A DNA stretch of 39,295 nt from an uncultured Candidatus Saccharibacteria bacterium (GCA_964548505.1 CAZJQE010000002.1:1-39295); one strand, 5' to 3'; positions 4,668 to 38,988 are shown, counted from the first letter of the stretch. Numbers and translations: made by a program. The notes: generated by a model not told the origin, from the letters alone.

Positions 4668-4674
4668 ATTATAA

Positions 4675-5595
4675 CTACATATTATTAAGTGGATGCTTCA
4701 TTATCTCACTTCTTAGGTGTTCTACACTAGCATATAAATATATGGTGGTCGTTTTTATGTTGGTGTGTCCCATGATTTTGGATAAGGAGTAAATATCAAT
4801 TCCACCCTCTAATAAAAGTGTAGCGAATGTATGACGAAGAGTGTGACAAGAATATTTAATACCAGTAATAAACCTAATTCTTTTTATCAATCTGATCAAT
4901 CCACTTTCTGATAATCCCATATCAAGGTTTGCAGAGACAAAAAAGCTAGGGCAAGTTTTCTTTAATTTCTTCCTTTCATCTAAATATTTCTTTAAATTCT
5001 GAGCTAGTGTAAAACTCATAGGCACAACTCTATCTTTTGATCCCTTTCCTTGTTTTATAAATATAGATAAATTCTCTATATCAACGTCCATAAATTTTAA
5101 ATTTAGCAATTCCTGTTTTCTTAATCCTGCAAACATAAACATTGAATATATAGCATAATTACGATGTCGCAAGAAACTAGAATCCCATGGATAATTAGAA
5201 ACAACTTCGAGAATTTTCATGGCCTCTTGTTTGGTAAGTTTTACTGGTAGTCTCTTTTCAAGCTTAGGAACTTCTATATCGTCCATTGGATTTACTTCCA
5301 TATATCCATTCTTGATACACCAACGAAAGAATACTCTCAATGATTTATGATAATGAAGAAAAGTATTTGCTGTCCATTTTCTTTCTATTCTTCCGTAGTA
5401 AAATAACGCTCTTAAATTATCTGGCGTAACTTCTTCAATATTAGTTATCTTCGCGAACCTATAATAGTAACTTATAGATTGTCTATACCTTCTTGTTGTC
5501 TTACTTGCAAAACCTTTTATGAAAGTAGAATATTCACAAAATTTCTTTGACAAAATTTGCATGTCCATAGTGTTTTTGGATCTCATGCGGTACAC
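4675..5595 (-). CDS. Tyrosine recombinase / phage-type integrase
   Basis: The C-terminal catalytic signature is present: GLRKQELLNL (Arg), SCHTLRHTFAT (H-x-x-R), MGHTNIKTTTIYLY (His and the Tyr nucleophile). The track start is GTG; an ATG lies 9 nt downstream. Confidence 0.85.
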   Translation of the reverse strand: MYRMRSKNTMDMQILSKKFCEYSTFIKGFASKTTRRYRQSISYYYRFAKITNIEEVTPDNLRALFYYGRIERKWTANTFLHYHKSLRVFFRWCIKNGYMEVNPMDDIEVPKLEKRLPVKLTKQEAMKILEVVSNYPWDSSFLRHRNYAIYSMFMFAGLRKQELLNLKFMDVDIENLSIFIKQGKGSKDRVVPMSFTLAQNLKKYLDERKKLKKTCPSFFVSANLDMGLSESGLIRLIKRIRFITGIKYSCHTLRHTFATLLLEGGIDIYSLSKIMGHTNIKTTTIYLYASVEHLRSEIMKHPLNNM

Positions 5596-9300: not shown

Positions 9301-12300
9301 TATAAACTTTAAGCAATGTTCCACTTTGAGTTGCTGTAATATAACGCCATGTATTATCTGTAAATGGAGTTGATGTAATACTAACCGAAGAACTCCCACC
9401 AATCCAAAAAGTAGTAGAATTACCTATTTGCCAAACATTAATATTGTTCCCAGTATTTGAACCAAGCAACACTGAACCGTTTGTATCAAGACCTGAAAGC
9501 TTAATCCATCCTGAAAACGTAGAATCAGTCGTTAAACCAGAAAATGCTGAAGAAATATTTATATAATCGTTTATTCCATCATAATTTTGTCCTTTATTTA
9601 TTTGTCCAGATATTTCGGCTGGTTCACCTACTGCTTTTTTTGTTCCTATTTTTTCATTTATAGTACTATCTAAAATAGTAGTACTGCTTGCATCTTGAGA
9701 ATGCCAAACACCTTGAAAATAATTATTTCCTCCATCATCCCAAACTTTTTGCGAACCGTAAGTAGAAGATGCTACTGGTTCAGTTGCCCCTCCATTTCCG
9801 TAATACATATAAATAATCGTGTCAGCGGAAGTAGAAAGTATCGGCACTTTTACCCAAGACACAAGTGCCCCTGATGAATACGATTCTATTTCTCGAGCAA
9901 GTTCTGTTGTCCCATTAAAAGATGTAAAACGAATATCTGTGCCAAGAGCATTTATATTTGAAAGTCCAGAGAGAGAAACTAAAACTGGAAAATTTGATTG
10001 TGAAATGTTTGGAACTTTTGTGTGATCAATCGTAATTTTTTTTCTATATGTCCAATTTGCGTTATACCAAGGAATTGATGGAGGAATAAATGCAACAGAG
10101 GCTTGGGTATTACCACGAGTCGCAACAGCATTTGTAGGTGCTCCTGGAACTGTTATCGGAATTGCTATCGCTGTACTACTAGCTGTTCCCTGTCCTGCAA
10201 TATTTACTGCGGAAACTCTAAAATCATAAGAAAGTCCATTTGTAAGTCCTGTTACAATACCAGTAGTATTTGTTGAAGTTCCATCTGCAAAAACTGCCCA
10301 TGTGCCACCTGTTGTAAGCTGATATTCAATAACATAATCTGCAATTGCACTTCCTCCATCAAAAGCTGGTGCACTCCAAAAAAGAGACGCTTGAGTATTC
10401 CCCGGAGTTGTTCCTAATGCAGTTGGTGCATTTGGCACGGTTCTAGGTGTCGCACTATTCGATGGTGCAGATGGAGAACTTGGTCCAACTACATTTGTGG
10501 CAGTTACAGTAAAAGTATATGATGTACCATTGGTCAATCCTGATACAACAATCGGTGAACCACTACCCGTGCCTGTGATACTTCCTGGACTTGAAGTTAC
10601 AGTATAACCCGTTATCGTACTTCCACCATTTGAAGCAGGCGGGGTAAAAGTTACAGAAACTTGCGCATTACCAGGAGTCGCAGTGCCTATTGTTGGTGCT
10701 CCTGGAATTGTCATTGGTGTTGCCACTGCTATCCCACTTACAGGACCCTGCCCCACAGCATTTATTGCAGAGACGCGAAAATTATAAGATAGGCCATTTG
10801 TGAGCCCTGTCACAACCCCAGTGGTAAGTGGAGATGTGCCATCCGCAAAAATTGACCAGACTGTCGGCTCACTAGCTAATTTATAGCCAAGAGCATAATC
10901 CGTAATCACCGAGCCATTATTCCCTGGCGCCGTCCACGATAGGCTCACCTGTGTATTTCCATAAGTTGCAACTAAATCTGTCGGAGCATTTGGCACCGAA
11001 GCAAAAATCCAATTTGTGTTTGTCCCAGTATCTGTAGTATTTATTCCAGCAAAAAAAGTATTAGTCTGCGTCGCCACAGACCTATTGAGCGTTAGCCAAT
11101 CCAGCGCAAAAACATTTGTTCCACTTGGTCGCGTGATCGTCCAAGTTCCTGTGCCTAAAACTGTATCTAAGTCGATTAAATTTCCTAGAGAACCTACCGC
11201 CACAATATTTGAAGACGGGCCCATGGTTATAGTTTTCCCGGTACCAACCCGTATTCTGTTTGGCGCAGCCATTGTAAATGTTCCATTCACTGTAAAATTA
11301 TTTGGAAGATTCCATTGAGCTGGAGCCGTAGTCTGACCAGAAAAATTTATATTATAAAAAGTAGTTCCTGCCATAGCCCCAAAACTTCTGGTAGTATTTG
11401 TACTATTGCCGGAAAATTCAAGAGTGGAAGTATTGCAATTAATTACCGTTCCGGAATTATTGGACCAAAGAGAACCGGCAGCAGTGACGGTTGTCTTCCA
11501 TATCCCTGATCCCATATTTATTGTTCCACTGGTTATCGAAAAATTATTAGCTGTTATGTTTTTATCATTAGCCGTAAATGTTCCAGCTGAATTTGTAAAA
11601 GTAGAAGCTAGAGTTAAATTATCTTGGAGAATATATGTTCCCCCTGAAGAATTTATAGCTACTCCATAAAATGTTTTTCCGGCCGATGTTATTGTCCAAC
11701 CACCAACAGGCATACCTGCTAATCTACCCTCAAGGGTTAAAATTTTATTTCCATTTGTCAAATTCATTCCAGATACCATAGTGAGTGATCCATACATCGT
11801 AAAATCATTTGCAAAACTCCATGTCGGCACATAAGTCGTTGTAGAACCTGTCCAATCAATGTTTGCCCCTGCTCTCGACACATCAAGTGATATTGTTGCG
11901 CTTGCTCCGAGTGAATGTGCATTTATGAAAACATTATCTTGTGGAAGCGGTGAGTCATCCGTCGCAATAGCATTTACTGGTGGGACTCCATCTGTCGTGT
12001 ACCAATTTGTAGCACCGGAAGTATTGCTCCATAATTTTGTTCCACTTGAAGATGTATACCAATACAAATTTCTTGAACTTGGGAAAATAATATTATTGTT
12101 TCCACCTGCATCTCCAGCTCCTCCTGGCACAGTCGTGTAAGACGACAAATCAAGTGAACTTCCAAATCCAACATCTCGAAAATCTACTCTCTGCATTGAA
12201 GTTGTCGCTCCTGAATTTAGAGTAAATGTTCTCCGCGTTCCTAAGGTACCCGACTGTACTAAAAATCTATATCTGTTATCTGCTCCACCTTTTAAAGTAA

Positions 12301-14617: not shown

Positions 14618-14627
14618 TTGTGGGTTA

Positions 14628-14636
14628 ATTATACCA
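14628..14636 (-). promoter_or_regulatory. Extended -10 box TGgTATAAT for the giant gene
   Basis: The reverse complement of 14628-14636 is TGGTATAAT. It lies 10 nt upstream of ATG 14617 and directly abuts IR arm 14637-14653. Confidence 0.45.
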
Positions 14637-14709
14637 CCCCGTAGTGAATTTTTAAAACGTTTTTCAACGCAAATTTTAAAAATTTGCATTTTAAAAATCT
14701 ACTACAGGG
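14637..14709 (-). repeat. Asymmetric inverted-repeat module, copy 2
   Basis: On the + strand, CCCCGTAGTGAATTTTT (14637-14653) and AAAAATCTACTACAGGG (14693-14709) are separated by 39 nt. The arm sequences and the two-position asymmetry match copy 1. Confidence 0.7.
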
Positions 14710-15943: not shown

Positions 15944-18106
15944 ATGGATGAAAGACTTTTAAAGCCTTACAACCCAAAAGAAACAGAAGAAAGAATTTAC
16001 AAACTCTGGGAAGAGAGTGGTTTTTTTAACCCAGATGTTTGCGTTGAGAAAGGAATAACTTCTCCTGAAGCTAAGCCTTTTACTTTAATAATGCCTCCGA
16101 CAAATGCCAATGGTTCACTCCATGCAGGACATGGTCTTGTAATGACAATTGAAGATATAATCGTGCGTTATAAAAGAATGCGCGGATTCCGAACTCTTTG
16201 GCTCCCAGGGCTTGATCACGCAGGGTTTGAAACCCAAGTTGTATATGAAAAAAAATTAGAAAAAGAAGGAAGAACTCGTTTTGAAATAGAAAGAGAACAA
16301 CTCTATAAAGAAATTCTTGATTTCACCTTAGAAAATTCAAAAAATATTAAAGGACAAATACGACGGATGGGTGCATCGTGCGATTGGTCTCGAGAAAAAT
16401 TTACTCTCGATGAGAGTATTACGAAAATTGTTTATCAAACTTTTAAAAAACTTTATGATGATGGTTTGGCATATAGGGGTAATAGAATAGTATCTTGGTG
16501 TACCAAACATCAAACTTCTTTTTCTGATTTAGAAATCAAAGACGAAGAAAGAGTTGAACCATATTATTATCTCAAATACGGTCCTTTTACTATTTCCACT
16601 TCTCGTCCTGAAACAAAATTTGGAGATAAATATGTAGTAATGCATCCGAGTGATGTGAGATATACGGAGTATAAAGATGGACAAAAAATAGATTTGGAAT
16701 GGATCAATGGTCCAATAACTGCAACAGTAATAAAAGATAATGCTGTTGACATGGAATTCGGTACTGGTGTTATGACTATCACTCCATGGCATGATCCTGT
16801 GGATTTTGAAATTGCAGAACGCCACAACTTAGACAAAGAGCAAATAATTGATGAAAATGGAAAACTTTTACCTATCGCAGGAGAATTTGCGGGACAACAT
16901 ATTAAAAAAGCTCGTCCTTTGATTATTGAAAAATTAAAAGGAAAAGGATTATTAGAAAAAACAGATGAAAATTACAAACACGTAGTGAGAACATGTTATA
17001 AATGCGGAACAATCCTTGAGCCCCAAATAAAAAATCAGTGGTTTATAAAAATGAAACCATTGGCAGAAAAAGCACTCGAGAGAATAAAACAAAATGAAAT
17101 AACCTATATCCCAGAACACTATCAAAAAATAACTGTTCATTGGTTAGAAAATATATTGGATTGGAATATCTCTCGGCAAATTGTATGGGGAATTCCAATA
17201 CCAGCAAAAATCTGCATCAAATGTGGGCATGGAATGGTTGACTTGGAAGATAAAATTTCAAAATGTGATAAATGTAATGGAGAAGTGAGACAAGATACTG
17301 ATACTTTTGATACTTGGTTTTCTTCTGGCCAATGGCCATATGCAGTACTTGGATATCCAGACAGTAGTGATTTTAAAAATTTCTATCCTACTGATGTAAT
17401 GGAAACTGCCGGAGATTTGGTTTTCTTTTGGGTATCTCGAATGATAATGCTTGGTATTTATGTCACAGGAAAAGTTCCATTTAAAAATGTTTATTATCAT
17501 GGCATGGTGCTTGATGCTAAAGGGCAAAAGATGAGTAAAAGCAAAGGTAATGTCATAGACCCACTCACATTAACAGACAAATATGGCACAGATGCATTTC
17601 GAATAGGAATGATTGTGGGCAACACTCCTGGTACATCGTTATCATTGTCAGAAGATAAAATTCGAGCATATAAAAATTATGCAAATAAACTTTGGAATAT
17701 AACTCGTTTTATTTTAAGTAATACGACTTTTACAAAATATGATGAAAGTTTTAAAGATTACACAAAAAATGATTTTGAATTAATACAAGAACGTGATTTA
17801 TTTATAAAAGAAATAACTCGTGAAATGGATGAATATAAATTCTACATCGTTGGAGAGAAAATATATCATTATACTTGGAATCGTTTTGCAGATGTAATAA
17901 TAGAAGAAAGTAAGGCAATTCTTGCAAGCGAAGATGAAAAGATAAAAAATTCTCGCGCACAATTTTTACTCGACACTTTAACGAAAATTTTGAAAGTACT
18001 TCACCCGTTTATGCCTTTTGTTACTGAAGAAATTTGGCAAAATATTGAACATGACGATAAAAAAACTTTATTAATGGTAGAGCAGTGGCCTCAATATAAT
18101 GGATAA
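15944..18106 (+). CDS. valS: Valine--tRNA ligase (short form, 720 aa)
   Basis: The HIGH-type motif is PPTNANGSLHAGHG. LWLPGLDHAGFETQ and KMSKSKGN (KMSKS) are present. Extended -10 TGcTAAAAT lies at 15929-15937, 6 nt before the ATG. Confidence 0.9.
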   Translation: MDERLLKPYNPKETEERIYKLWEESGFFNPDVCVEKGITSPEAKPFTLIMPPTNANGSLHAGHGLVMTIEDIIVRYKRMRGFRTLWLPGLDHAGFETQVVYEKKLEKEGRTRFEIEREQLYKEILDFTLENSKNIKGQIRRMGASCDWSREKFTLDESITKIVYQTFKKLYDDGLAYRGNRIVSWCTKHQTSFSDLEIKDEERVEPYYYLKYGPFTISTSRPETKFGDKYVVMHPSDVRYTEYKDGQKIDLEWINGPITATVIKDNAVDMEFGTGVMTITPWHDPVDFEIAERHNLDKEQIIDENGKLLPIAGEFAGQHIKKARPLIIEKLKGKGLLEKTDENYKHVVRTCYKCGTILEPQIKNQWFIKMKPLAEKALERIKQNEITYIPEHYQKITVHWLENILDWNISRQIVWGIPIPAKICIKCGHGMVDLEDKISKCDKCNGEVRQDTDTFDTWFSSGQWPYAVLGYPDSSDFKNFYPTDVMETAGDLVFFWVSRMIMLGIYVTGKVPFKNVYYHGMVLDAKGQKMSKSKGNVIDPLTLTDKYGTDAFRIGMIVGNTPGTSLSLSEDKIRAYKNYANKLWNITRFILSNTTFTKYDESFKDYTKNDFELIQERDLFIKEITREMDEYKFYIVGEKIYHYTWNRFADVIIEESKAILASEDEKIKNSRAQFLLDTLTKILKVLHPFMPFVTEEIWQNIEHDDKKTLLMVEQWPQYNG

Positions 18107-18800
18107 TCTATTTAAAGACCCAAGATCAATAGGTATCGCCATAGTAGAAGGTGTAATCCCTTCCCTTTTATGGCTCTGGTTTTGGTTAAGAGAAGATAGA
18201 GAAGACCCTGAACCAGCAGGAATACTTGCTTTTTGTTTTTTTATTGGCATGGCATTGGTAGTTTTTGCTGTACCAATGCAAAAATTTGTGCAAAGTGTAA
18301 TAAGTTCTAATCAAACCCAAATTATACTTTGGGCAACCATAGAGGAATTATTGAAATATCTTGCAGTAATATTACTTTTATATAAATCAAAATATTTAAA
18401 CAAACCGATAGATTGGCCAATATTTCTTATTACTATAGCGCTTGGTTTCGCTGCATTTGAAAATATACTTTTTATTATAAAACCATTATCTCTAGGACAA
18501 GCGACTGTTGGGCTTATGACTGGTCAGCTTAGATTTTTAGGTTCAACCTTACTGCATGCAGTATCAAGTGGAATAATTGGTATTTCGGTTGGATTGTCAT
18601 TCTATATGGGAAGTTTTTTAAAGAAACTTTATCTTATTATAGGAATAGGACTCGCGATCACCTTGCATAGTAGCTTTAATTTTTTTATAATGAATAATAA
18701 CGGAAGTGATTATTTAAAAGTATTCGCCTTCCTTTGGGTCGCAACAATTATCAATCTACTTCTCTTCGAGAGGTTACGAAGAATGAGTGGTGAAAATTAA
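18099..18800 (+). CDS. PrsW-family intramembrane metalloprotease-like protein
   Basis: Polytopic membrane protein carrying EELLKY, FAAFENILF and HAVSSG motifs. Its start overlaps the valS stop by 8 nt. Confidence 0.65.
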   Translation: MDNLFKDPRSIGIAIVEGVIPSLLWLWFWLREDREDPEPAGILAFCFFIGMALVVFAVPMQKFVQSVISSNQTQIILWATIEELLKYLAVILLLYKSKYLNKPIDWPIFLITIALGFAAFENILFIIKPLSLGQATVGLMTGQLRFLGSTLLHAVSSGIIGISVGLSFYMGSFLKKLYLIIGIGLAITLHSSFNFFIMNNNGSDYLKVFAFLWVATIINLLLFERLRRMSGEN

Positions 18801-18811
18801 AAATTATTAAC

Positions 18812-18840
18812 TTGCCCTCTATTTAATCAAAGGGTATAAT
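18812..18840 (+). promoter_or_regulatory. hsp20 promoter (leaderless type)
   Basis: TTGCCC (18812-18817), 17-nt spacer, TATAAT (18835-18840), then 6 nt before ATG 18847. Confidence 0.5.
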
Positions 18841-18846
18841 AGATAT

Positions 18847-19308
18847 ATGAGTAAAAAAAGAGGTTTTTTTGAAAGATTAACAGGTAGTATGAAAGCTGAT
18901 GATGACGAGGAGGAAATTAAAAAGATACCAGTACATGGAGACAAGAAAGATAACAATTGGATAGAAGAAGAAAACGAAGAAGCAGAACTAACTGTCGATG
19001 TGTATCAAACACAAAATGAAATAATAGTGCAAACAATGGTAGCAGGAGTAAGACCTGAGGATTTGGAGTTGACCCTTGCACGAGACATGATAACAATCCG
19101 AGGCAAAAGAGAAGAATCTCGAACTATTAGCGAAGAGAATTTTTTTACAAAAGAATTATATTGGGGTACCTTTTCAAGAACCATTTCACTCCCCGCTGAA
19201 GTTGACCCAGAAGAAGCCGAAGCAGTAGAAAAACATGGACTTCTTACCATCAAGCTTCCAAAAATAGACAAAGATAGAAAAACAAGTGTAAAAGTAAAAT
19301 CAATCTAA
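18847..19308 (+). CDS. Hsp20 / alpha-crystallin family small heat-shock protein
   Basis: The alpha-crystallin domain pattern is LTVDVYQT.NEIIV...GV.PEDLELTL..DMITIRGKREE...WG.FSR.ISLP..VD...A....G.L.I.LPK. Confidence 0.85.
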   Translation: MSKKRGFFERLTGSMKADDDEEEIKKIPVHGDKKDNNWIEEENEEAELTVDVYQTQNEIIVQTMVAGVRPEDLELTLARDMITIRGKREESRTISEENFFTKELYWGTFSRTISLPAEVDPEEAEAVEKHGLLTIKLPKIDKDRKTSVKVKSI

Positions 19309-19385: not shown

Positions 19386-19457
19386 GCCGAGGTAGCTCAG
19401 TAGTAGAGCATTCGCCTGAAGAGCGATGGGTCGGCAGTGCGATTCTGCCCCTCGGCA
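19386..19457 (+). tRNA. tRNA-Phe(GAA)
   Basis: Cloverleaf by hand: GCCGAGG TA GCTC AGTAGTA GAGC A TTCGC CTGAAGA GCGAT GGGTC GGCAG TGCGATT CTGCC CCTCGGC A. CCA is not encoded. The T-loop reads TGC rather than TTC. Confidence 0.8.
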
Positions 19458-19464
19458 CAAATTT

Positions 19465-19490
19465 AAAAAACATCCATTCGGATGTTTTTT
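19465..19490. terminator. Bidirectional terminator hairpin between tRNA-Phe and the convergent small ORF
   Basis: AAAAAACATCC-ATTC-GGATGTTTTTT, with an A-run and a T-run flanking the stem. Confidence 0.65.
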
Positions 19491-19767
19491 ACTGCTTTAT
19501 ATTTATATTTTTCAAAATATCTTGCAAGGAAACACTATCAACACTTTGTTTCATTCCAGAAATATCATTATACATTTTCATTAACTTATCTACATAAGGT
19601 TGCAATACATAAAATGCTCCAATACTGATTCCGATAATAACAAGCCAATAAACGATTCTCATGAAAGATGCCCATTTTTGAGCACTTCTGATTTTATGGA
19701 GCATCACGTTGTTGTCTTTTACAAGCTCAAAAGTTTCTTCTAGTAATTTTTTTTCTTCTGGTTGCAT
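19489..19767 (-). CDS. Small single-pass membrane protein (92 aa), unknown function
   Basis: The ORF has one hydrophobic helix (IVYWLVIIGISIGAFYVL). Extended -10 TGaTAAAAT (reverse complement of 19774-19782) lies 6 nt before the ATG. Confidence 0.55.
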   Translation of the reverse strand: MQPEEKKLLEETFELVKDNNVMLHKIRSAQKWASFMRIVYWLVIIGISIGAFYVLQPYVDKLMKMYNDISGMKQSVDSVSLQDILKNINIKQ

Positions 19768-19808
19768 ATTTATATTTTATCATGATTGATTTAAGAATCA
19801 AATTTTTG

Positions 19809-19880
19809 TGCTCTCGCCGGGAGTCGAACCTGGATCAGCTCGTTAGGAGTGAGCCGTTCTATCCATTGAACTACGAGAGC
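19809..19880 (-). tRNA. tRNA-Arg(CCT)
   Basis: The reverse complement reads GCTCTCG TA GTTC AATGGATA GAAC G GCTCA CTCCTAA CGAGC TGAT CCAGG TTCGACT CCCGG CGAGAGC A. There is one A.C mismatch in the anticodon stem and one in the T stem. Confidence 0.8.
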
Positions 19881-20503
19881 ATTATTTTGTCTTTTACTAC
19901 ATTAATAAGTGACATTAACAGTTTAAACTCTTTTGAACTTTTTTCAACCCTTAGTCTACACATTCCAAATTTTAGTTTTCCTTTCTTGTTTCCTTTTATT
20001 AATTCAATTTTAAAAAACTGATTCTTGTTTAATTCTAAAATATTCGACCAATAGTTAATAGCCTCATTTTGGTTTATGTCATCATATAACCTAATAGAAG
20101 CTTTTATCCTATTTTTTGTTACGCCAATTTCCTTTATAAAATTTAAAAATGCACGAAGCAAAACAGGATCGCTATTTATAATATTTAATTCTTTTTTTGT
20201 TCCCTCTCCCCAATATATACCAATTAAAAGAAAAATTTTATCGCGTAATTTTAATTCTTTAATAATATTATTTGCATCTTTTTTAGATTTAATCCAAAGA
20301 TCTTCGCTTCTGGCTTTACTACCACCCTGTTTTTTATTCAAAACCAATCTATACTTTGGTAAAATATCCACTTCCTGTGTGTATTTTGAAACAATAGATT
20401 TACTTTTTCCTGTACGTAAAGAAATTTCAGAAATACTATTTCCTTTTGATCTTAGTTCAATTATTTTTAATATTATTTTTTGTGATATTTTCAATTTCCC
20501 CAT
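19871..20503 (-). CDS. HTH plus LAGLIDADG-like (single-motif) putative homing endonuclease
   Basis: The N-terminal HTH is IIELRSKGNSISEISLRTGKSKSIVSKY. FLLIGIYWGEGTK...NSDPVLLRAFLNFIKEIG resembles LAGLIDADG-family blocks. The start is set at M13 because TATAAT (reverse complement of 20510-20515) lies 6 nt upstream. The stop codon lies inside tRNA-Arg. Confidence 0.5.
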   Translation of the reverse strand: MGKLKISQKIILKIIELRSKGNSISEISLRTGKSKSIVSKYTQEVDILPKYRLVLNKKQGGSKARSEDLWIKSKKDANNIIKELKLRDKIFLLIGIYWGEGTKKELNIINSDPVLLRAFLNFIKEIGVTKNRIKASIRLYDDINQNEAINYWSNILELNKNQFFKIELIKGNKKGKLKFGMCRLRVEKSSKEFKLLMSLINVVKDKIMLS

Positions 20504-20582
20504 ATTTACATTATATAACAGAATACTAAAACTATCCATAGAATCACATAGGTTTCTAAATAGATATTTTAATTTGAATGAT

Positions 20583-21527
20583 TTAATTAATTTTAGAGAG
20601 CCTACAATACGCCCTTAAGGCATTTATGTCGTCTTCGGTTGGAATTAAACCATTACCAATATTTAATCTATACATTATCGCATCAGGATTATCTAAATGC
20701 TCCAAACCAAGTGCGTGCCCCAATTCATGCATTAAAACTCTTGTAAGGTTGTCTTTACTATCAAATTGATAAATATTTATATATTTTCCTGTTTTATCAG
20801 AAAGATATTGCCCTTCTTCAAATTCATCTCCAAGTTCATCTCCAGTAATATTGTATTCTTTTGCCTTATTATTAAAAGAAACTGCAATCTTATTTAATTC
20901 ATTAATAGAAAAATTAATTTTTTCTATGTATGTATTTAATTCTTGTCTCAATATATTTATTTCTGATAAATCTGATTCTAAAGATTTTTTTTCAAGATTC
21001 GCGGAAACAACTACCTCTTTCGTAGCTCCACCACGACTATTCCAATAAGCTATATCTTTTTGATACTTGCTTTGACGAACATCAAATGATGATTTCCTTG
21101 AATCAAAAATTGCTTTTTTTTCTTTGTATTCTATCTGAAGCTTACTTAACTCTGATTTTAAATTATTATAATTATTTTTATCACTTTCTAATATATTTCC
21201 CATTGCTGCTAATTTATCGGTACTTGCTTGACGTTTATCATACAAAAGACTAATTTTTAATTCACCTCCCGCAGGAATATATTCAAGTAAGTTTTTGCCT
21301 ATTGATGTCTCCCACATATCTTCATCTTGTTTAATTACACTTAAAAAATCTTCCTTGCTAACTCCAAAAGTATCATCAAAACTTCCAATAGAATAAGTCA
21401 TAACCCTAGAACAGGGAAAATATTTATCTTGCAACACAAAAAAACTCTTCTCGAGTGAGTTTCTAAAAACAAAAGCAACAATGCCAAGTACAACTAAGGC
21501 AATGACGTTTTGAAAAACATTTTTCAT
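20583..21527 (-). CDS. Membrane-anchored coiled-coil protein with a C-terminal matrixin-like zinc metalloprotease domain
   Basis: It has an N-terminal TM and a long heptad-rich middle part. HELGHALGLEH (HExxHxxGxxH) is followed by a Met-turn-like AIMY. Confidence 0.7.
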   Translation of the reverse strand: MKNVFQNVIALVVLGIVAFVFRNSLEKSFFVLQDKYFPCSRVMTYSIGSFDDTFGVSKEDFLSVIKQDEDMWETSIGKNLLEYIPAGGELKISLLYDKRQASTDKLAAMGNILESDKNNYNNLKSELSKLQIEYKEKKAIFDSRKSSFDVRQSKYQKDIAYWNSRGGATKEVVVSANLEKKSLESDLSEINILRQELNTYIEKINFSINELNKIAVSFNNKAKEYNITGDELGDEFEEGQYLSDKTGKYINIYQFDSKDNLTRVLMHELGHALGLEHLDNPDAIMYRLNIGNGLIPTEDDINALRAYCRLSKIN

Positions 21528-21534
21528 GTTTAAT

Positions 21535-21771
21535 TTAAATTAATTCCAAAAGCTTGGCTATTTCAGGCTTATTAAAACCAACAATCAATTGATCTTCAAT
21601 AATGATAACTGGCACTCCCATCTGCCCTGATTTTTCCATCATTTCTTTTCTTTTTGTGATATCACTTGCCACGTCGTATTCAACAAAAGGAATACCGTTT
21701 GCCTTAAAAAAGTCTTTTGCCATATGGCAGAAATGACAGGTTGGGGTCGAATATACTGTTACGTTTTTCAT
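21535..21771 (-). CDS. Glutaredoxin-like protein (NrdH/YruB type, CHFC active site)
   Basis: The 78-aa thioredoxin fold has VYSTPTCHFCHMAK, GVPVIII and the GF.. pattern. Confidence 0.8.
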   Translation of the reverse strand: MKNVTVYSTPTCHFCHMAKDFFKANGIPFVEYDVASDITKRKEMMEKSGQMGVPVIIIEDQLIVGFNKPEIAKLLELI

Positions 21772-21877
21772 GATGTTTTAAAAAATTAATTACTAATACC
21801 CTATTTTATCATACTTTTTAAAAAAGCAAAAAGATGCTAAAATCACTCTTATATAGTATTGATTTAGTCTGAAAAAC

Positions 21878-21948
21878 GCGAGTATGGTTTAGTGGTAGAA
21901 TGAGTCCTTCCCAAGGATTAGACGGGGGTTCGATTCCCCCTACTCGCA
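21878..21948 (+). tRNA. tRNA-Gly(CCC)
   Basis: GCGAGTA TG GTTT AGTGGTA GAAT G AGTCC TTCCCAA GGATT AGAC GGGGG TTCGATT CCCCC TACTCGC A. Confidence 0.85.
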
Positions 21949-21959
21949 CACAAAATTTC

Positions 21960-31783: not shown

Positions 31784-33496
31784 TTAATATACCTCTTGCT
31801 GATAGCATCGCTCACAATAAACTTTCTCAGGTCTCTCTGGGGCATAAGTAGTTTCGAAAGTATTTTCACAACCTTCCTTCATGCATTTTCTATACCAAAG
31901 TTTCAAAGGATTTCTTTTTTGGGTTCTTTGATAGTGCCTACAATTAGGACAAAGATGGGGAATCGGTAAATTCATTCTTTGGTAGAATTTTAACTCATCA
32001 GGAATAATTTTAAATGCTTCAGTGCATTGTTCATTACAAGCGCCTTTGTGTTCACACTCTATTACTTTTCCCAAAATATCATCATTAATATTTTCTATAT
32101 TGTCAGGAATATTCTCATTTTTAATATCTATTTTGTAATTTCTTTCTTTCCTATCATTCCATTTATACCCTTGCAGGATAGCTTCTTCTTTTGTTAGTGG
32201 AAAATATTCCTGAGCTACTGTTTCGTTATAGAAAAATGGACTTAATTCTGGTGGAAAAAATTCCCCGTATTTATAAATCCTTCCATTGATATCTACATAT
32301 GGAATATCTTCCATTTGCTTAAGAATCTTAGGTATTAATTCTTCATATTCTTCTTTCTGATATTGTTTATTTAAAATACAATATTTTTTACTTTTCATTC
32401 CAACACATCCAAATAGATATGAGGAATCTGGACAGACATAAAGAAGATTCGAGTTTCTATTATTTTTTGACTGAATATAAAATTTAGTTTGGTAAGAATT
32501 ATCTCCTACGATTGAAGCTTCATAAATCAGTTCATTTTTCAAACAACCACATATGTCATAACTTGTTTTTGCCCCTTCCGTTGCTCGCCAACAATATTTA
32601 ATGTCTTCTCCTTCGCCATTAAAACACAAGTGGGCATTCTTAGAATTTGACATATTGTCACCAGTTACGTTGGTACACTTTAAAATATTGGCAAATTTAT
32701 GAATGGATTTTTTGTACAATTCATCAAATTCTTCTTTAAATAATTTCTGTGATTTATGAGAATTTATTTCATACTTTTCTAATTCTTTTAAATATTCTTC
32801 TCTTTCATATTGTTTATTTCTAATACAAAAACTTTTATAACGTAGATTTGAACACATAAAACAATCTGTGCAATTTACACAATCAAATAAAAAATTAGAA
32901 TCACTGCACTCTCGACAATTTACCAAATAAGAAGATTTATAGCATTTTGCGGTATTTAAATTTTGATAACATAATTCTGAATCGGTGGTCCAATAGCAAT
33001 CAACACAATCTTTACTTCGCTCCATTATTTGAGAATAAAAAACATTTTCACTTCTTACTGCAACAGAAAGATAAACATTTTTTGAATAAGCACTATGGTT
33101 TGAGTAATCTGTTTGGATGTTATTAAAACCCCATAAATTAATAATCGGGACAGTTTCAATCAATTCTTTATATTGCTGGAAAAAGGGTTTAGAAAAATCA
33201 TAGTCTTTACCATAGACAGTTGCATCCCAACCATCCCCCCACCAACAATCATGACAATAAACTGGGGATTTACAATCTCTAGAAATTGCACTAATAATAT
33301 TTTTTTTACAAAAATTACATTCGCGCTTATAGAAATTTCTTTCATTTCTCCAAATCAAACGTCTCACCAATCTACATTCCGGGCACCAAGTCGGTGCTGG
33401 AACTTTTATTTTTTCGTAAAAATTAAAATCCTCAGATTCGATTACGAATTCTTGCTTGCAATTCTGGCAGTTTTTTGTTTCACTTTTATATTCCAT
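31784..33496 (-). CDS. Cysteine-rich multi-zinc-ribbon protein, paralog A (570 aa)
   Basis: The N-terminus is CQNC...FYEKIKVPAPTWCPECR. The central cluster is DCVNCTDCFMC. YCI.NKQY..EEY occurs twice. C-terminal motifs are FYQRMNLPIPHLCPNCR and YCERCYQQEVY. Confidence 0.8.
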   Translation of the reverse strand: MEYKSETKNCQNCKQEFVIESEDFNFYEKIKVPAPTWCPECRLVRRLIWRNERNFYKRECNFCKKNIISAISRDCKSPVYCHDCWWGDGWDATVYGKDYDFSKPFFQQYKELIETVPIINLWGFNNIQTDYSNHSAYSKNVYLSVAVRSENVFYSQIMERSKDCVDCYWTTDSELCYQNLNTAKCYKSSYLVNCRECSDSNFLFDCVNCTDCFMCSNLRYKSFCIRNKQYEREEYLKELEKYEINSHKSQKLFKEEFDELYKKSIHKFANILKCTNVTGDNMSNSKNAHLCFNGEGEDIKYCWRATEGAKTSYDICGCLKNELIYEASIVGDNSYQTKFYIQSKNNRNSNLLYVCPDSSYLFGCVGMKSKKYCILNKQYQKEEYEELIPKILKQMEDIPYVDINGRIYKYGEFFPPELSPFFYNETVAQEYFPLTKEEAILQGYKWNDRKERNYKIDIKNENIPDNIENINDDILGKVIECEHKGACNEQCTEAFKIIPDELKFYQRMNLPIPHLCPNCRHYQRTQKRNPLKLWYRKCMKEGCENTFETTYAPERPEKVYCERCYQQEVY

Positions 33497-33504
33497 CTTT
33501 TTTA

Positions 33505-33531
33505 TTTATTCCACTTTAGTTTAGTAAAGTA
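33505..33531 (-). repeat. 27-nt intergenic block shared by the two spacers of the Cys-rich operon (copy 1)
   Basis: TTTATTCCACTTTAGTTTAGTAAAGTA is identical to 35246-35272. Confidence 0.8.
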
Positions 33532-33532
33532 A

Positions 33533-35230
33533 TTAATATACTTCCTTTTTATAACAATCTTCACAATATACGATTTCGGGTCGGTCAGAAGCCCAAGATG
33601 TTTTTATATCTTTATCACACTTTGCACATTTACGATTATGAATTTCAATTGGATTTAAAAGTTGTGTACGTTCCCTGTCTCGACAAATAAAACATTTATA
33701 TGGAATAGGTAAATTAAACTTTCTGTAAAATTCTAATTCCATTTTAATAAGTCGATAATTTTTCCCACATTTTTCACATTTTAAAATTTCTTTTAAAATA
33801 GAATCTTCCACATCTTTTATATGTTCCGGAGTCTTAATTGTTGCATCTTGATAATCCCTCGGCTCAGCATCACGCCAAACAAAACCTTCTTTCTCAGCCT
33901 CTTTTTTTTCTAAAGGGAACCACTCCATGGCTGTTGACTCATTGTATGCCCAAGGAGAAAATTCACTCGGCATCATTTCACCATAAAAATATTTCTTTCC
34001 AGTTTTATCAATATATGGAATATCCTTCATCTGTTTTCTCAACTTTGTTGTTATTTCTAAATATTGTTCTTTTGAATATTTTTTATTTAAAATGCAATAC
34101 TCTCCATTTCTGACCCCAACACAACCAAACATATTATTTGAGGAGTGACATCCAAAACAAAATTCAATATTACTTGTGGCATAATTCCAAACACTAAATT
34201 TTACATTGCTAATATTTTCTCCAACCCAACAAGATTCATAAACCAACTCCGCATTTTCACCAAAAAGAGAATAGTCATAACAATTTTCTACTGGTCCAGC
34301 TTTTAAGAATTGACAATATTTACAATCTTTCGCTTTGCGTACCATATATGAATCGTGAACATTTTTTGAATTATAAACATATTCACCTGTTGTGTTATCA
34401 CTTGCCCTATCATTAAATTGCTTACGTGGTTGTGTTAGTAAAAATTCCATTGCTTGTTTTCTAAACTTTTCTAAACTTTCCTTTGTACCAAAGTCATATT
34501 TTTTAAAAATTTTTTCATATTCACCTTTTTCGTATTGTTTATTGAAAATACAATATTTCTTCTTTGTAAGATTGGCGCAACCAACGCAGTCTGAACAGCC
34601 AACACAACTTCTACAAAACCACATATTTATTGAGCTAACCACATCTTCACAAAAAAATGCTTGATAACTTCTCCAAGTAAGTATGTTGCCATACCCCATT
34701 TGATCATGACGATTATAAGAACAATCAATACAATCTTTTACATCAGTAACTAAATTTACATAAGCACATTTTTCAGCCCCTGTGACTCGAAAACATAAAT
34801 AACATTCTTTACATTGGCTGGCAGCATTGCAATAATCACTTCGCACCATTAACGAATGCTCACTATAAAGATTTGGAAGTGGTACATCTTTTATAAGTTC
34901 TTTAAATTGTTCAAGGAATGGTCGCGACCAATCAATTTCCTTGCCATATTCTATCGGATCCCATTTATCGCTCCACCATACATCTTGACGATAAATTTTA
35001 TTTTTTGAATCAGGATGATGTGTTGTTATCAATTCTTCTCCAGTAAAATCACATTTTCTTTTATATAAAATTTGATATCCTTGCCAAGAAAGTCTTCTCT
35101 TTAGTCTACACTCTGGACACCAAGTCGGTGGTGGCACATTTATTTTTTCGTAAAAATTAAAATCATCGGGTTCTATTATGAAATCACATTTACAATTCTG
35201 GCATATTTTGTTTTCACTCTTATGTTCCAT
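33533..35230 (-). CDS. Cysteine-rich multi-zinc-ribbon protein, paralog B (565 aa)
   Basis: It has the same architecture as paralog A. The second N-terminal ribbon has lost its cysteines. The C-terminus is YCEDCYKKEVY. Confidence 0.8.
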   Translation of the reverse strand: MEHKSENKICQNCKCDFIIEPDDFNFYEKINVPPPTWCPECRLKRRLSWQGYQILYKRKCDFTGEELITTHHPDSKNKIYRQDVWWSDKWDPIEYGKEIDWSRPFLEQFKELIKDVPLPNLYSEHSLMVRSDYCNAASQCKECYLCFRVTGAEKCAYVNLVTDVKDCIDCSYNRHDQMGYGNILTWRSYQAFFCEDVVSSINMWFCRSCVGCSDCVGCANLTKKKYCIFNKQYEKGEYEKIFKKYDFGTKESLEKFRKQAMEFLLTQPRKQFNDRASDNTTGEYVYNSKNVHDSYMVRKAKDCKYCQFLKAGPVENCYDYSLFGENAELVYESCWVGENISNVKFSVWNYATSNIEFCFGCHSSNNMFGCVGVRNGEYCILNKKYSKEQYLEITTKLRKQMKDIPYIDKTGKKYFYGEMMPSEFSPWAYNESTAMEWFPLEKKEAEKEGFVWRDAEPRDYQDATIKTPEHIKDVEDSILKEILKCEKCGKNYRLIKMELEFYRKFNLPIPYKCFICRDRERTQLLNPIEIHNRKCAKCDKDIKTSWASDRPEIVYCEDCYKKEVY

Positions 35231-35245
35231 TTTTTACTTTTTTTC

Positions 35246-35272
35246 TTTATTCCACTTTAGTTTAGTAAAGTA
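35246..35272 (-). repeat. 27-nt intergenic block (copy 2)
   Basis: Identical to 33505-33531. Confidence 0.8.
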
Positions 35273-35285
35273 GGTATTATTTATC

Positions 35286-37013
35286 TTAATATACTTCCTT
35301 CTGGTAACATTTTTCACAGTATATGATTTCAGATCTATCTGGCGAATACGTTGACTCAAATTCTTCATGACACTTGCCACTATGTCCGTGACTTTCTTTA
35401 TCACACATACAAGACCTATGCCAGAGTTTAAATGGGTTTCTTCTTTTTACTCTATTCGCATGCCTACAATAAAAACATCTCCTTGGAATTGGAATTTCCA
35501 TTTTTTTATAAAAAATTAATTCATTTTGCACAATTTTATAATTCCTATTGCATTCAATACAAGATAAAATTTCATTCAAAATACTCTCATTAACATCATT
35601 TATCGATTCAGGTATATCCTCAGGCTTCAATGTCTCCTTTCCGGTCGTGTGTTGCGTATGGTCTTGCCATTTATATCCTTCTTTCAAAGCTTCTTCTTTT
35701 GTAAGTGGAAACTGTTCTGGGGCCTGGGTCTCGTTGTATCCAAATGGCGAAAGTTCACTTGGAAAAAATTCTCCATATTTATAGATATTCCCCTTTTTAT
35801 CGACATATGGCATGTCGTTCATATGTTTTATTATTTTCGGCAACAGTTCTTCATATTCTTCTTTGGTGTATTGTTTGTTCAAAATAGAATAATTGGTATT
35901 GCGAAGCGCGTCACAACCAATTACATATTTGCAGTTATGACAATGCTGAGTGTAATGAATGTCTTGATTTTTGGGAGAAAAAATTCCAAAACGATTGAGC
36001 TGTGAGTGATCAACCACTATTCCTTCGTAGCACTCCGAAAGTTCCCCGGATACTGTTAAGTCATAGACGTCTTTGTCTCTAGTACAAAAATCACAATATC
36101 TAGAATTTTCAAAACTTTTTACCACAAAAGAATCTCTAGTATTTTTACTATTTGAGATAACATCACCCGTGCAATTAATATTTTGAATCGCATTAACATA
36201 CTTTCTAGGAATTTTTAAAATAAACTCATCATATTCCTTTTGTGCTTTTTCAACTCCAGAAAATGTATCCAATCTATAACTTTTTAAAATTCTTTCATAT
36301 TCAACTTTCTCATATTCTTCGTTTTTAAAATGATATTTCTTACCTCGTAAGTTGGCACACATAAAACAATTAGAACAATCTCCACAGTTGTATAAAAATT
36401 GCGAATCGATACAGGCAATATTAAATTGTCCATATTTTAACTGATAACAATTACGAGCAATCATACACTCATAAAGCCATTCATTCTTTGACCTTAAGTT
36501 CATGCAATCCATTAAGTCTTTTCCACCTCTGTCGATAAAGAAACTATACATAACATTTTCCACATACCACCCAGAAAAAACCATATAACAATTTTTCGAA
36601 AACCAGAAGTCATGAGTATATTCACAATTGAGACTCGCTATTCCGTCATCGTTTACGATAGCCATATGCGGTACTTTGTGCATTAGTTCATCAAACTGCA
36701 CAAAAAACGGCTTTGTGAAATCATAATCCATGCCATAACTTTTTGGGTCCCATTTATCACTCCACCAACATTTATTGCAATAAACGATAATTTTAGATTC
36801 TGGAGAATATAAGGTCACAACTGACTTTCCGCAAAGGTCACATTTGCTGTTATATAACGACATTATATTTCTCCAAGCATATCTTCTTTGCATTCTGCAA
36901 GGTGGACAAAAGGTAGGTGGTGGAACCTTTACTTTCTCATAAAATCCAAAATCATTCGAGTCAATCACGAAATCATACTTACAGTTTTGGCAAATTCGAG
37001 TTTCAGTCTTCAT
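35286..37013 (-). CDS. Cysteine-rich multi-zinc-ribbon protein, paralog C (575 aa from MKTETRICQNC)
   Basis: The start was trimmed from 37274 to 37013 for three reasons: the upstream 87 codons overlap the dnaK 3' end and its terminator, the paralog alignment begins here, and TATCAT lies 6 nt upstream. Confidence 0.8.
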   Translation of the reverse strand: MKTETRICQNCKYDFVIDSNDFGFYEKVKVPPPTFCPPCRMQRRYAWRNIMSLYNSKCDLCGKSVVTLYSPESKIIVYCNKCWWSDKWDPKSYGMDYDFTKPFFVQFDELMHKVPHMAIVNDDGIASLNCEYTHDFWFSKNCYMVFSGWYVENVMYSFFIDRGGKDLMDCMNLRSKNEWLYECMIARNCYQLKYGQFNIACIDSQFLYNCGDCSNCFMCANLRGKKYHFKNEEYEKVEYERILKSYRLDTFSGVEKAQKEYDEFILKIPRKYVNAIQNINCTGDVISNSKNTRDSFVVKSFENSRYCDFCTRDKDVYDLTVSGELSECYEGIVVDHSQLNRFGIFSPKNQDIHYTQHCHNCKYVIGCDALRNTNYSILNKQYTKEEYEELLPKIIKHMNDMPYVDKKGNIYKYGEFFPSELSPFGYNETQAPEQFPLTKEEALKEGYKWQDHTQHTTGKETLKPEDIPESINDVNESILNEILSCIECNRNYKIVQNELIFYKKMEIPIPRRCFYCRHANRVKRRNPFKLWHRSCMCDKESHGHSGKCHEEFESTYSPDRSEIIYCEKCYQKEVY

Positions 37014-37045
37014 CTTAACATGATAATTCTTTTTAAGAATAAAAT

Positions 37046-37082
37046 CAAAAAGACCCAAACATATCGTTTGGGTCTTTTTTTG
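37046..37082 (-). terminator. Rho-independent terminator after dnaK
   Basis: GACCCAAAC (37052-37060), loop ATATC, GTTTGGGTC (37066-37074), flanked by an A-run and a T-run. Confidence 0.75.
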
Positions 37083-37089
37083 AAAAATC

Positions 37090-38988
37090 CTACTTATTTT
37101 CTTCAGGTTTTTCCCTTTCCTTGAATTCAGCGTCGTGAACTTCTGGATTTTGTTCTTCTGGGGTGGTGTCTTTTGTATCAGTTGCTCCAGCTTTTGCCAT
37201 CGCTTCTCCGATTTTAGACATCTCACTTGAAAGTTCTTCAGTAGCTTTTTTGATTGCCCCTTCATCAGAACCATCTTTCACAGCTCGCAAGGCAGAAATT
37301 TTTTCATTTACACCTTTCTTCACATCTTCAGGAATTTTAGCTTCATTTTCCTTTACAGATTTTTCTGCCGTATAAATAATCATCTCAGCCGTGTTTTTAA
37401 TTTCAACCAATTCTTTTTTCTTTTTATCTTCTTCAGCATGAACTTCAGCATCTTGTTGCATTTTTTTAATATCTTCGTCTTTAAGTCCTGAAGAAGCTTC
37501 AATTCTAATTGACTGAACTTTCCCAGATGCTTTATCCATTGCTTTTACATTAAGTATACCGTTTGCATCAATATCAAAAGTAACTTCAATTTGAGGCATA
37601 CCTCGATGTGCTGGTGGAATTCCATCTAAAATAAATCTACCTAAACTCTTATTGTCGGATGCCATTGGACGTTCACCTTGCACAATGTGAATTTCAACAG
37701 AAGTTTGATTGTCAGCTGCAGTTGAGAATGTTTGTGACTTACTTGATGGAATAGTTGTATTTCTTTCAACTAATTTTGTAGCTACTCCTCCTAATGTTTC
37801 AATCCCCATTGATAGTGGAATCACATCAAGAAGTAAAACGTCTCGTACGTCTCCTGCAAGTACTCCTGCTTGCACTGCGGCACCAAGAGCTACAACTTCG
37901 TCAGGATTAATAGACATATTTGGCATTCTACCGAAAAGATTTTTTACTGCTTCCACGATTGCTGGCATTCTAGTCTGTCCTCCAACCATTATGATTTCAT
38001 TAATTTCTGCCATCTTAAATGGTGAAGCTTCAAGTGCTCTTTTGGTAATTTCAATTGAACGGTCAACGTATTCTTTTGCTAAAGATTCCAAGGTTGCTCG
38101 AGACATTTTAAGAAGTAAGTGTTTAGGACCTGAAGCATCAGAAGTAATAAATGGGATATTAATTTCTGCCTCCATGGTGGTAGAAAGTTCATGTTTTGCT
38201 TTCTCAGCTGCTTCTTTTAATCTCTGATGTGCAAGTGGGTCTTTCGTTATATCAATACCAGATTCTTTTTTAAATTCATCAGCAATCCAAGTTACAATCT
38301 TTCGATCAATATCTCCACCACCCATATGAGAGTCTCCATCAGTTGATTTTACTTCAATAACGTCATCTCCAATTTCAAGCACGGAAACATCAAATGTTCC
38401 ACCTCCAAAGTCATACACCACTATCTTTTCATTTTTCTTTTTGTTAAATCCATATGCAAGTGCGGCCGCCGTTGGCTCATTGATAATTCTTTTTACATCA
38501 AGCCCTGCGATTGCTCCAGCATCCTTGGTTGCTTTTCTTTGTGCATCGTTAAAATATGCCGGCACCGTGATGACAGCTTCAGTAATTTTTTCTCCTAACT
38601 TTGCTTCAACGTCTGCTTTTATTTTTTGTAATACCATCGCAGAAATTTCTTCTGGACGATAAAACTTTTCAGACATTTTTACTTTTACTCCACCATCTTC
38701 ACCTGTTTCTATTTTAAATGGAGCAGAAGTTCTATCTTTTTGTACTTCTGGATCATCAAAACGATGACCCATATATCTTTTAATTTCTGAAATCGTATTT
38801 TCTGGATTTGTAACTGCTTGACGTTTTGCCAAGAGTCCCACAATTCTGTCTCCATTTTTTGCAGTTGCTACAATAGAAGGAGTCGTGCGATTACCTTCAA
38901 CATTTTCAATAATTTTTGGTGCACCTCCTTCGATAATTGCTACCGCTGAATTTGTTGTACCTAAGTCTATACCTATAATTTTACTCAT
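37090..38988 (-). CDS. dnaK: Molecular chaperone DnaK (Hsp70)
   Basis: [21 protein letters not shown] and VGGQTRMP are present, and the protein is full length at 632 aa. Confidence 0.95.

Follow-up and report, generated by a model that had tools for sequence, protein, structure and literature searches.

The stretch of DNA analyzed here (the window: 39,295 nucleotides, GCA_964548505.1 CAZJQE010000002.1:1-39295, from an uncultured Candidatus Saccharibacteria bacterium) raises the question of what three cysteine-rich genes between dnaK and lepA encode, and what purpose their products might serve. The genes, here called paralogs A, B, and C, are located on the minus strand at 31784..33496, 33533..35230, and 35286..37013, and encode proteins of 570, 565, and 575 amino acids, respectively. 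A preliminary description had reported them as three co-oriented open reading frames (ORFs) with spacers of 36 and 55 nt, and the ORF list agrees on each of these points. The formal ORF of paralog C extends over 35286-37274 and overlaps the end of dnaK; its start was placed at the ATG at position 37013 because this position is supported by the aligned N-termini of homologs. An exact count gives 37 cysteines for paralog A, the number estimated earlier by hand, with 36 in paralog B and 34 in paralog C. The maximum 19-residue hydropathy is below 1.0 in all three proteins, indicating that they have neither a transmembrane helix nor a signal peptide, as had been proposed. Paralog A shares 42% identity with B and 46% with C, and orthologs are found in other genomes, which rules out an assembly duplication and agrees with the earlier view of the copies as old and diverged; each of the three belongs to a different subfamily of one family, and these subfamilies diverged anciently. 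From the domain analysis and structure model described below, the proteins are predicted to be soluble, compact zinc proteins with a duplicated, hexad-repeat beta-helix core. We tentatively read them as non-catalytic, zinc-stabilized scaffolds or adaptors, docking through their fingers and a conserved module, that would serve subfamily-specific machines, with the A and C types linked to the DnaK locus and the B type to clusters of cell-wall synthesis genes.

The ends of the proteins carry the predicted zinc sites. Profile-profile comparison over 174 full-length copies from the fetched loci revealed internal homologies that give the domain order Z1(zf_Tbcl)-Z2(CxxC-x17-CxxC)-H1-H2-conserved module-Z3-Z4, with a helical linker between H1 and H2. 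Finger Z1 (residues ~1-50) is homologous to Z3 (residues ~476-530; probability 99.2%, E 2e-19), and Z2 (residues ~52-100) is homologous to Z4 (residues ~531-570; probability 97.3%, E 2.5e-11). In paralog A, Z1 (residues 1-50; 33347..33496, minus strand) resembles a zf_Tbcl treble clef built on C10, C13, C38, and C41, all conserved in ~100% of copies. Z2 (residues 52-100; 33197..33343, minus strand) shows the exact CxxC-x17-CxxC spacing with C60, C63, C81, and C84. Z3 and Z4 together occupy residues 476-570 (31787..32071, minus strand), Z3 with C481, C491, C516, and C519, and Z4 with C538, C543, C561, and C564 in the spacing CxxxxC-x17-CxxC. The cysteines of Z1, Z3, and Z4 are conserved at 89-100%. 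Those of Z2 are kept in ~54% of the 174 copies; the absence of the second N-terminal finger's cysteines from paralog B, noted earlier as a loss and confirmed here, is therefore a trait of its subfamily within a polymorphism that runs through the whole family.

Z1 and Z3 share with zf_Tbcl (PF13451) the pattern C-x2-C...F.FY...P..C..CR, and the F.FY...P..C..CR motif between the two cysteine knuckles (C10/C13 with C38/C41, and C481/C491 with C516/C519) is invariant or nearly so among 132 sequences. At these positions the model has a hairpin and then a helix, and an Arg cluster is conserved after each knuckle (R42, R45, and R46; R520 and R524). The features by which the three paralogs were first grouped recur in each of them: C-Q-N-C...FYEK..VP.PT.CP.CR near the N-terminus, a second copy of this motif towards the C-terminus, and the terminal YCE.CY..EVY. 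Direct Pfam and NCBIfam scores against zf_Tbcl and zf_Tbcl_2 are below the curated cut-offs; for PF13451, paralog A scores 19.7 bits (E 8e-4) and paralog C 16 bits, below the gathering score of 24 bits. PF13451 is matched by 13 of 53 relatives at E<0.1, and a few database relatives carry a precomputed match to it. Z2 and Z4 share the CxxC-x17-CxxC (or CxxxxC-x17-CxxC) spacing of PF23477/TIGR04272, and hhalign comparison with the finger of a PF23477-positive ATPase (Pfam E 1e-14) gave probabilities of 96.6% for Z2 and 90.9% for Z4. The CxxC-x17-CxxC domain binds zinc in small proteins of Methanosarcina mazei, as determined by inductively coupled plasma mass spectrometry (PMC12704099). On this basis we assign Z1 and Z3 to the zf_Tbcl type of treble-clef finger and Z2 and Z4 to the CxxC-x17-CxxC type, and zinc binding is predicted for both. 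The zf_Tbcl and zf_Tbcl_2 families are themselves of unknown function; in the present family such fingers do not stand alone as small proteins but cap the ends of a 570-amino-acid beta-helix protein. A LIM identity was also considered for the C-terminus, where the spacing from C516 to C564 resembles the double finger of CRP1/CRP2 and PINCH (PDB sequence search, E 0.003-0.02; weak Pfam LIM matches in 5 of 53 members, best E 0.013). The internal homology, however, pairs C516/C519 with C481/C491 in Z3 and assigns C538/C543/C561/C564 to Z4, and the scores are far below threshold, so that the resemblance to LIM is an analogy of spacing only.

Between the fingers lies the duplicated core. The two halves, H1 (residues ~115-240; 32777..33154 in paralog A, minus strand) and H2 (residues ~265-392; 32321..32704, minus strand), align with each other at a probability of 99.9% and E 5e-37, and this substantiates the internal duplication suspected from the two (Y)CI.NKQY..EEY modules. 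H1 ends in a CxxCxxCxxC cluster followed by the YCI.NKQY..EEY cap, and H2 ends in the second cap. An AlphaFold model of paralog A made from 53 sequences had a predicted local distance difference test score (pLDDT) of ~60 in the core; a Foldseek search with it gave no match in the PDB, and the matches in BFVD were limited to short zinc ribbons. Addition of B-subfamily sequences deepened the alignment to 132 sequences and thereby resolved the core, with a pLDDT of 93.1 and a predicted template modeling score of 0.90. In this model the core consists of 4-residue strands at 6-residue intervals, running across residues 139-192 in H1. The same period is found in the alignment, where the autocorrelation is ~0.5 at lags of 6, 12, and 18 and the hexad motif is [VILC]-x2-[SCAGT]-x2, position 1 being aliphatic or Cys and position 4 a small residue.

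A Foldseek search of the PDB with the resolved model returned left-handed beta-helix (LbetaH) proteins for nearly all of the 50 listed matches, including the putative acetyltransferase 3c8v (E 1e-5, probability 0.87), LpxD, GlmU, LpxA, and gamma-carbonic anhydrase. As modeled, the family shares with these proteins (in GlmU, with the C-terminal domain) the six-residue strand period and the inward alternation of aliphatic and small residues. It differs from them in its Cys-rich interior and in having two helices duplicated in one chain, each closed by the YCI.NKQY..EEY cap. The matches raise the possibility of an LbetaH enzyme of the acyl/acetyltransferase or gamma-carbonic-anhydrase kind to which zinc fingers have been appended, a reading that would also suit the occurrence of B-type genes among peptidoglycan genes. 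In LbetaH transferases and gamma-carbonic anhydrase, His serves as catalytic base or metal ligand. Among our 132 sequences there is no invariant His or Lys, nor any near-invariant His in the core, and the family thus differs from the LbetaH transferases in having no catalytic His. The repeat profile of Hexapep, [LIV]-[GAED]-x2-[STAV]-x, gave no match at E up to 1, nor did any transferase profile, and the TM-scores of the Foldseek matches are about 0.1. These results make an enzyme of this kind highly improbable. The LbetaH and beta-helix folds also serve non-catalytic roles as rigid protein-protein platforms, as in bactofilins, dynactin p25/p27, CcmM, and eIF2B epsilon/gamma, and an association between bactofilins and genes for cell-wall synthesis is common. 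The B-type copies show such an association too; no sequence or Foldseek match to bactofilin was seen. To our knowledge, none of these scaffold families carries zinc fingers.

The beta-helix model offers an explanation for the cysteine content. Inward-facing positions are occupied mainly by Cys, Ser, and Val, and the protein would be so cysteine-rich because Cys fills these positions. Good conservation within the core is limited to C206/C209/C212/C215 and C355/C364/C373, the latter three being kept in 79-98% of copies. The model thus places most of the central cysteines in the beta-helix interior, exchanging with Ser and Val, and because of the hexad core and this poor conservation they are not taken as additional zinc ribbons. 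The three genes had first been described as multi-zinc-ribbon paralogs, and this stands for the terminal fingers, which are homologous to zinc-finger families, and not for most of the central cysteines. An iron-sulfur reading of the CxxCxxCxxC clusters (residues 206-215 in A, 206-218 in B, and 210-219 in C) was rejected: the ferredoxin motif CxxCxxCxxxC(P) is absent from the paralogs, and the cluster positions coincide with the beta-helix interior. Could the proteins instead form a thiol-rich cytoplasmic pool for zinc storage or the sensing of oxidation, much as metallothionein or Hsp33 do? The 34-37 Cys per protein, the many copies, the at least four predicted Cys4 sites, the heat-shock genes nearby, and the CutA-like gene beside some copies would all suit such a buffer or sensor. 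The exchange of most non-finger Cys for Ser or Val at structural positions does not, and the strongly conserved non-Cys surfaces, together with the constant length of ~563 amino acids in the B type, point to a specific, fold-dependent function. We consider a metal or redox buffer very unlikely.

Outside the fingers the lowest column entropy is found in an acidic module (pI 4.5) that follows H2 (residues 393-475 of paralog A; 32072..32320, minus strand). Its residues 393-445 (PY.D..G..Y.YGEFFP.E.SP..YNET) are among the best conserved of the family and the remainder is more variable; the module had no match in any library searched. The distribution of charge bears on whether the proteins might be regulators whose four basic fingers bind RNA or DNA, each paralog regulating or acting on the transcripts of its own operon. 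The finger modules are indeed basic (pI 7.5-8.4), Arg clusters are conserved after the knuckles, and different subfamilies are embedded in different operons. The whole proteins, on the other hand, have a pI of 6.3-7.3, with H1 and the conserved module acidic, the fingers match only families of unknown function, and no nucleic-acid-binding family appears among the library, PDB, or Foldseek matches. Nucleic-acid binding of this kind therefore seems quite unlikely to us.

To what extent is the family known? A sequence search with paralog A matched more than 7,752 proteins among 8,000 candidates scored. The best 120 matches are all full length with 50-81% identity, and the named best matches are 'hypothetical protein' entries from metagenome-assembled genomes of Candidatus Paceibacterota, Nomurabacteria, and similar lineages. 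In an exhaustive HMMER scan of 50%-identity representatives, 3,789 clusters passed E≤1e-3 and 1,517 passed E≤1e-30, and a scan of species-representative genomes confirmed at least 574 loci. For the best 80 of these loci, the lineage, where named, is Patescibacteria (Nomura-, Giovannoni-, Jorgensen-, Staskawicz-, and Liptonbacteria, Minisyncoccia, and RAAC4_OD1_1), the exceptions being a set auto-labeled Saccharibacteria, one locus labeled Burkholderiales, and several titled 'bacterium' alone. The family is known here only from ultra-small bacteria of the Paceibacteria type, which belong to the candidate phyla radiation (CPR). Paralog C matches the family hidden Markov model (HMM) at 780 bits, and paralog B belongs to an orthologous subfamily of 75-79% identity and 561-567 amino acids (about 563), whose members include Nomurabacteria and are 50-60% identical in Lipton- and Staskawiczbacteria. 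No model in Pfam, NCBIfam, PADLOC, or PHROG covers the proteins, the zf_Tbcl and zf_Tbcl_2 matches being sub-threshold, in keeping with the earlier remark that the three could be placed in no named family. A search of the literature found no description of the family. These results indicate that it appears to be undescribed at the family level, although its parts, a zinc finger and a beta-helix repeat, are known fold types.

Copy number varies widely. The 82 fetched family-centered loci and the window make up 83 sources that carry 193 family copies, with tandem arrays of up to 9 copies, which fill a 14.4-kb locus (L058), and of 8 in L053 and 7 in L077. Of the pairs of neighboring genes, 86% are co-stranded; median gaps measure 28-34 nt. 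We therefore weighed a fast-turnover conflict system, in which the proteins would be intracellular immune sensors, host-directed effectors, or selfish genes: a slot or array holds 0-9 copies, non-orthologous replacement is seen between close relatives, and the sequences vary more in the central region than at the ends. The rate of protein change speaks against this, as dN/dS (the ratio of nonsynonymous to synonymous substitution rates) is ~0.05 when A and B are compared with their orthologs, a value close to that of DnaK but approximate, dS being near saturation. Selection on the family is strongly purifying. Old subfamilies also keep a fixed length and 50-60% identity across Nomura-, Lipton-, and Staskawiczbacteria, and neither a secretion signal nor a nuclease motif is present. 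PADLOC gave 0 matches, and PHROGs gave one weak and uninformative match, of paralog B to a family of unknown function (E 0.003). No relative was found in IMG/VR viral contigs, on which ground a phage or mobile origin was rejected. We regard a conflict system as the least probable of the explanations considered; along with the enzyme, it is the alternative with the most evidence against it.

The position of the genes behind dnaK provided a further line of evidence. The 82 family-centered loci, picked by similarity to paralog A and so biased towards A-type orthologs, include DnaK in 17 cases, DnaJ in 16, and GrpE in 8. The recurrent layout, with FAM standing for a family gene, is rpoA ... GrpE> FAM> FAM> PaaX-like< DnaK> x> T4CPz> FAM> FAM> T4CPs> DnaJ> FAM> membrane protein. 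In this layout, T4CPz denotes a soluble TrwB/VirD4/HerA-like ATPase that bears a zf_Tbcl_2 finger at its C-terminus and has a disordered tail, and T4CPs is a shorter ATPase paralog of ~490 amino acids that directly precedes dnaJ in 12 loci. Where the downstream neighbor of the long zinc-finger ATPase could be observed, it was a family gene in 14 of 19 cases. The paralog C subfamily (cluster 5) is found in 11 family-centered loci, several of which are chaperone loci. The association with dnaK that was first noted in the window thus recurs, with family genes set among grpE, dnaK, and dnaJ in many relatives; it does not extend to the B-type orthologs, which lie elsewhere, and slot occupancy varies.

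Occupancy of the slot was compared with the closest relative, locus L003, in which DnaK is 93%, LepA 96%, and paralog A (L003:7809-9515, also preceding lepA) 81% identical. There the order is DnaK> T4CPz> FAM> FAM> A> LepA, and neither of its two additional copies is orthologous to B or C (at most 44% identity). The same slot therefore holds a different gene set, from which we infer that the C + B + A array of the window would be a recent local reassortment in a hot slot between dnaK and lepA. The window is also without the long ATPase that L003 has after dnaK. This ATPase (L003:2130-4394, and in other loci) carries a LADLGIEF motif and a disordered tail ending in EVPEDVLRKILE; an example of the short form is at L021:9837-11375. 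Among loci centered on the ATPase, those of the closest relatives show the same backbone; their slots hold 0-5 family genes each, and L083 has none. The zinc-finger ATPase matches phrog_5156 (E 1.6e-56), and in the distant metagenome loci L113-L158 a DUF8128 membrane protein is usually encoded directly upstream of it, forming a conserved two-gene module. An obligatory pairing of the family with the VirD4-like ATPase was rejected, as DUF8128 is the conserved partner in the ATPase-centered metagenome sample, whose more distant loci rarely contain a family gene. A survey from 2025 listed 5,713 VirD4-like proteins in 2,918 Patescibacteria genomes, found 148 near virB4, and raised exaptation (PMC12102498).

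Two further genes were seen around the chaperone loci. A divergent PaaX_M/HTH_20 regulator lies upstream of dnaK in L015, L018, L028, L067, L071, L086, L088, and L110, and may take the place of HrcA as heat-shock regulator; its position would fall just past 39295, the end of the window. A CutA-like gene of ~100 amino acids, named from the appearance of its sequence only, directly follows a VirD4-like ATPase in L030, L039, L055, L097, L098, and L111, and in the first three of these is followed in turn by a family copy.

The chaperone neighborhood makes it necessary to consider a dedicated role in proteostasis, which the preliminary description had thought conceivable and in which the A- and C-type proteins would be zinc-dependent holdases, co-chaperones, or client adaptors acting with DnaK, DnaJ, GrpE, and the two soluble, VirD4-like hexameric ATPases. 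Many genera have family genes in three or four slots of the order grpE-[FAM]-PaaX<-dnaK-[FAM]-T4CPz-[FAM]-T4CPs-dnaJ-[FAM], the long ATPase is mostly followed by a family gene and the short one directly precedes dnaJ in the loci described above, and Z2 and Z4 are homologous to the ATPase finger. The same chaperone backbone nevertheless occurs in L083 with no family gene there, a terminator parts dnaK from the array in the window, and the loci sampled are both biased and related by descent. In addition, B-type orthologs are found in cell-wall operons: close orthologs of paralog B (78% identity) lie in the orders VanY< B> FAM> MraY> FtsW> MurG and MreB> MreC> x> PBP2> B, and other family copies are found between ftsW and murG or after mnmA. 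A role confined to proteostasis accordingly strikes us as unlikely. A LAGLIDADG_3 homing-endonuclease ORF that lies near family genes at L002:16658-17077 is probably unrelated.

A narrower form of this idea, that the family occupies the slot of dnaJ and does its work, can be dismissed. An HMM search of the window found no GrpE, DnaJ, or VirD4-like ATPase, and so the reported absence of grpE and dnaJ from the window stands; for hrcA, likewise reported absent, no dedicated model was used. In relatives, DnaJ co-occurs with the family and is often its immediate neighbor, which is the reverse of an anticorrelation. The proteins share with the DnaJ zinc-finger domain and Hsp33 their cysteine-zinc centers and a location in or near heat-shock operons, but they lack a J domain and the CxxCxGxG repeat and match no Hsp33 profile. 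The absence of a J domain had been noted before, and we found no DnaJ profile match; a lone HPD in paralog B lies outside any J-domain context. Replacement of DnaJ was rejected on these grounds, and the functional inference drawn from the 'DnaJ slot' is unsupported.

We return to the scaffold or adaptor reading, which would accommodate these observations as follows. The protein would be a rigid, zinc-stabilized and non-catalytic body, docked to partner proteins or nucleic acid by its terminal fingers and conserved acidic module, and the more variable surface of the beta-helix would confer specificity on each subfamily. The grpE-dnaK-dnaJ locus and its pair of soluble VirD4-like ATPases, of which one bears the same finger, would be served by A- and C-type copies, and the gene clusters of the elongasome and divisome by B-type copies; at no point would the family stand in for DnaJ. 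Several points weigh against this reading. A scaffold is what one arrives at by default when catalytic residues are not seen, and the conserved D166, D314, E412, N227, and N376 could form an active or metal site. The class of beta-helix and its handedness come from prediction; the Foldseek TM-scores are very low (0.06-0.12), the small residue of the hexad is at i+3 rather than the canonical i+4, and neither Hexapep nor another transferase profile in Pfam recognizes the core. The partners suggested here are candidates read from gene neighborhood, which is weak evidence in the co-directional, tightly packed genomes of CPR bacteria. The family-centered sample is biased towards A-type orthologs, and the pairing of ATPase and family is seen only in closer relatives, DUF8128 being the partner more widely.

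We also examined how the array of the window may be expressed. An intrinsic terminator of dnaK with a 15-bp stem followed by a T run lies at 37047..37079 (minus strand), confirming that dnaK ends with a terminator of its own. It is followed by a promoter-like site, TTGATT-17-TATCAT, at 37020..37048 (minus strand), whose end lies 6 nt short of paralog C's ATG. The TATCAT box is thus present where it had been reported, but the number of promoter-like matches across the region is not above the shuffled expectation, and the paralog C promoter is therefore a consensus match only. The three genes behind the terminator show a tight, operon-like packing, and no terminator-like site was found between C, B, A, and lepA. 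Judged from these signals, transcription of the C-B-A array probably begins at a start of its own behind the dnaK terminator and possibly reads on into lepA.

The 36-nt spacer between B and A and the 55-nt spacer between C and B each hold an identical 27-nt block, TACTTTACTAAACTAAAGTGGAATAAA, in agreement with the preliminary description. The copy in the B-A spacer (33505..33531, minus strand) contains a weak 7-bp hairpin (folding energy -3.7 kcal/mol, z -1.5), and the folding energy of the C-B copy (35246..35272, minus strand) is -6.8 kcal/mol (z -2.0). The hairpin, of 7-8 bp, is A/U-rich, and the block is better conserved than the neighboring coding DNA. Its 25-nt core occurs exactly 2 times in the window, compared to 0 expected from shuffles. 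The block was not found among the 167 relative loci fetched at the time of the search, and with its weak hairpin it was rejected as a family-wide element. It may mark a tract of local conversion, or be a small element that acts in processing or as a ribosome-binding site.

Elsewhere in the window, a 2,793-amino-acid ORF at 6308-14689 (minus strand) has at least 11 fibronectin-III repeats, Laminin_G_3, and DUF2341, and probably encodes a giant surface protein; its local G+C content is 0.39-0.42, compared to ~0.29-0.38 in the remaining window. The region 569-5595 encodes an unknown 293-amino-acid ORF, SSB, Peptidase_S49, an HTH_36/DnaD-like protein, and a tyrosine integrase, and may be an integrated element or prophage remnant. 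A PrsW-family protease and Hsp20 adjoin genes for tRNA-Phe, tRNA-Arg(CCT), and tRNA-Gly(CCC) at 18099-19308 and 19386-21949, and a matrixin-like Peptidase_M10 protein is encoded at 20583-21527.

The tiny, streamlined genomes of Paceibacteria thus keep arrays of up to nine 570-amino-acid paralogs under strong purifying selection. The role of VirD4-like ATPases in Patescibacteria is an open question (PMC12102498), and for a subset of those that are not near virB4 the family is a candidate partner or context. It is conceivable, though doubtful, that the family represents a new, Paceibacteria-specific class of zinc-finger-capped, cysteine-lined beta-helix adaptors that couples the DnaK system and the elongasome and divisome to soluble VirD4-like ATPases. 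If true, roughly ten or more subfunctionalized paralogs would be kept in genomes that we assume to be under 1 Mb in size. What was a 'hypothetical protein' now has a domain map, a predicted structure of high confidence, and subfamilies with distinct neighborhoods, by which its function becomes testable.

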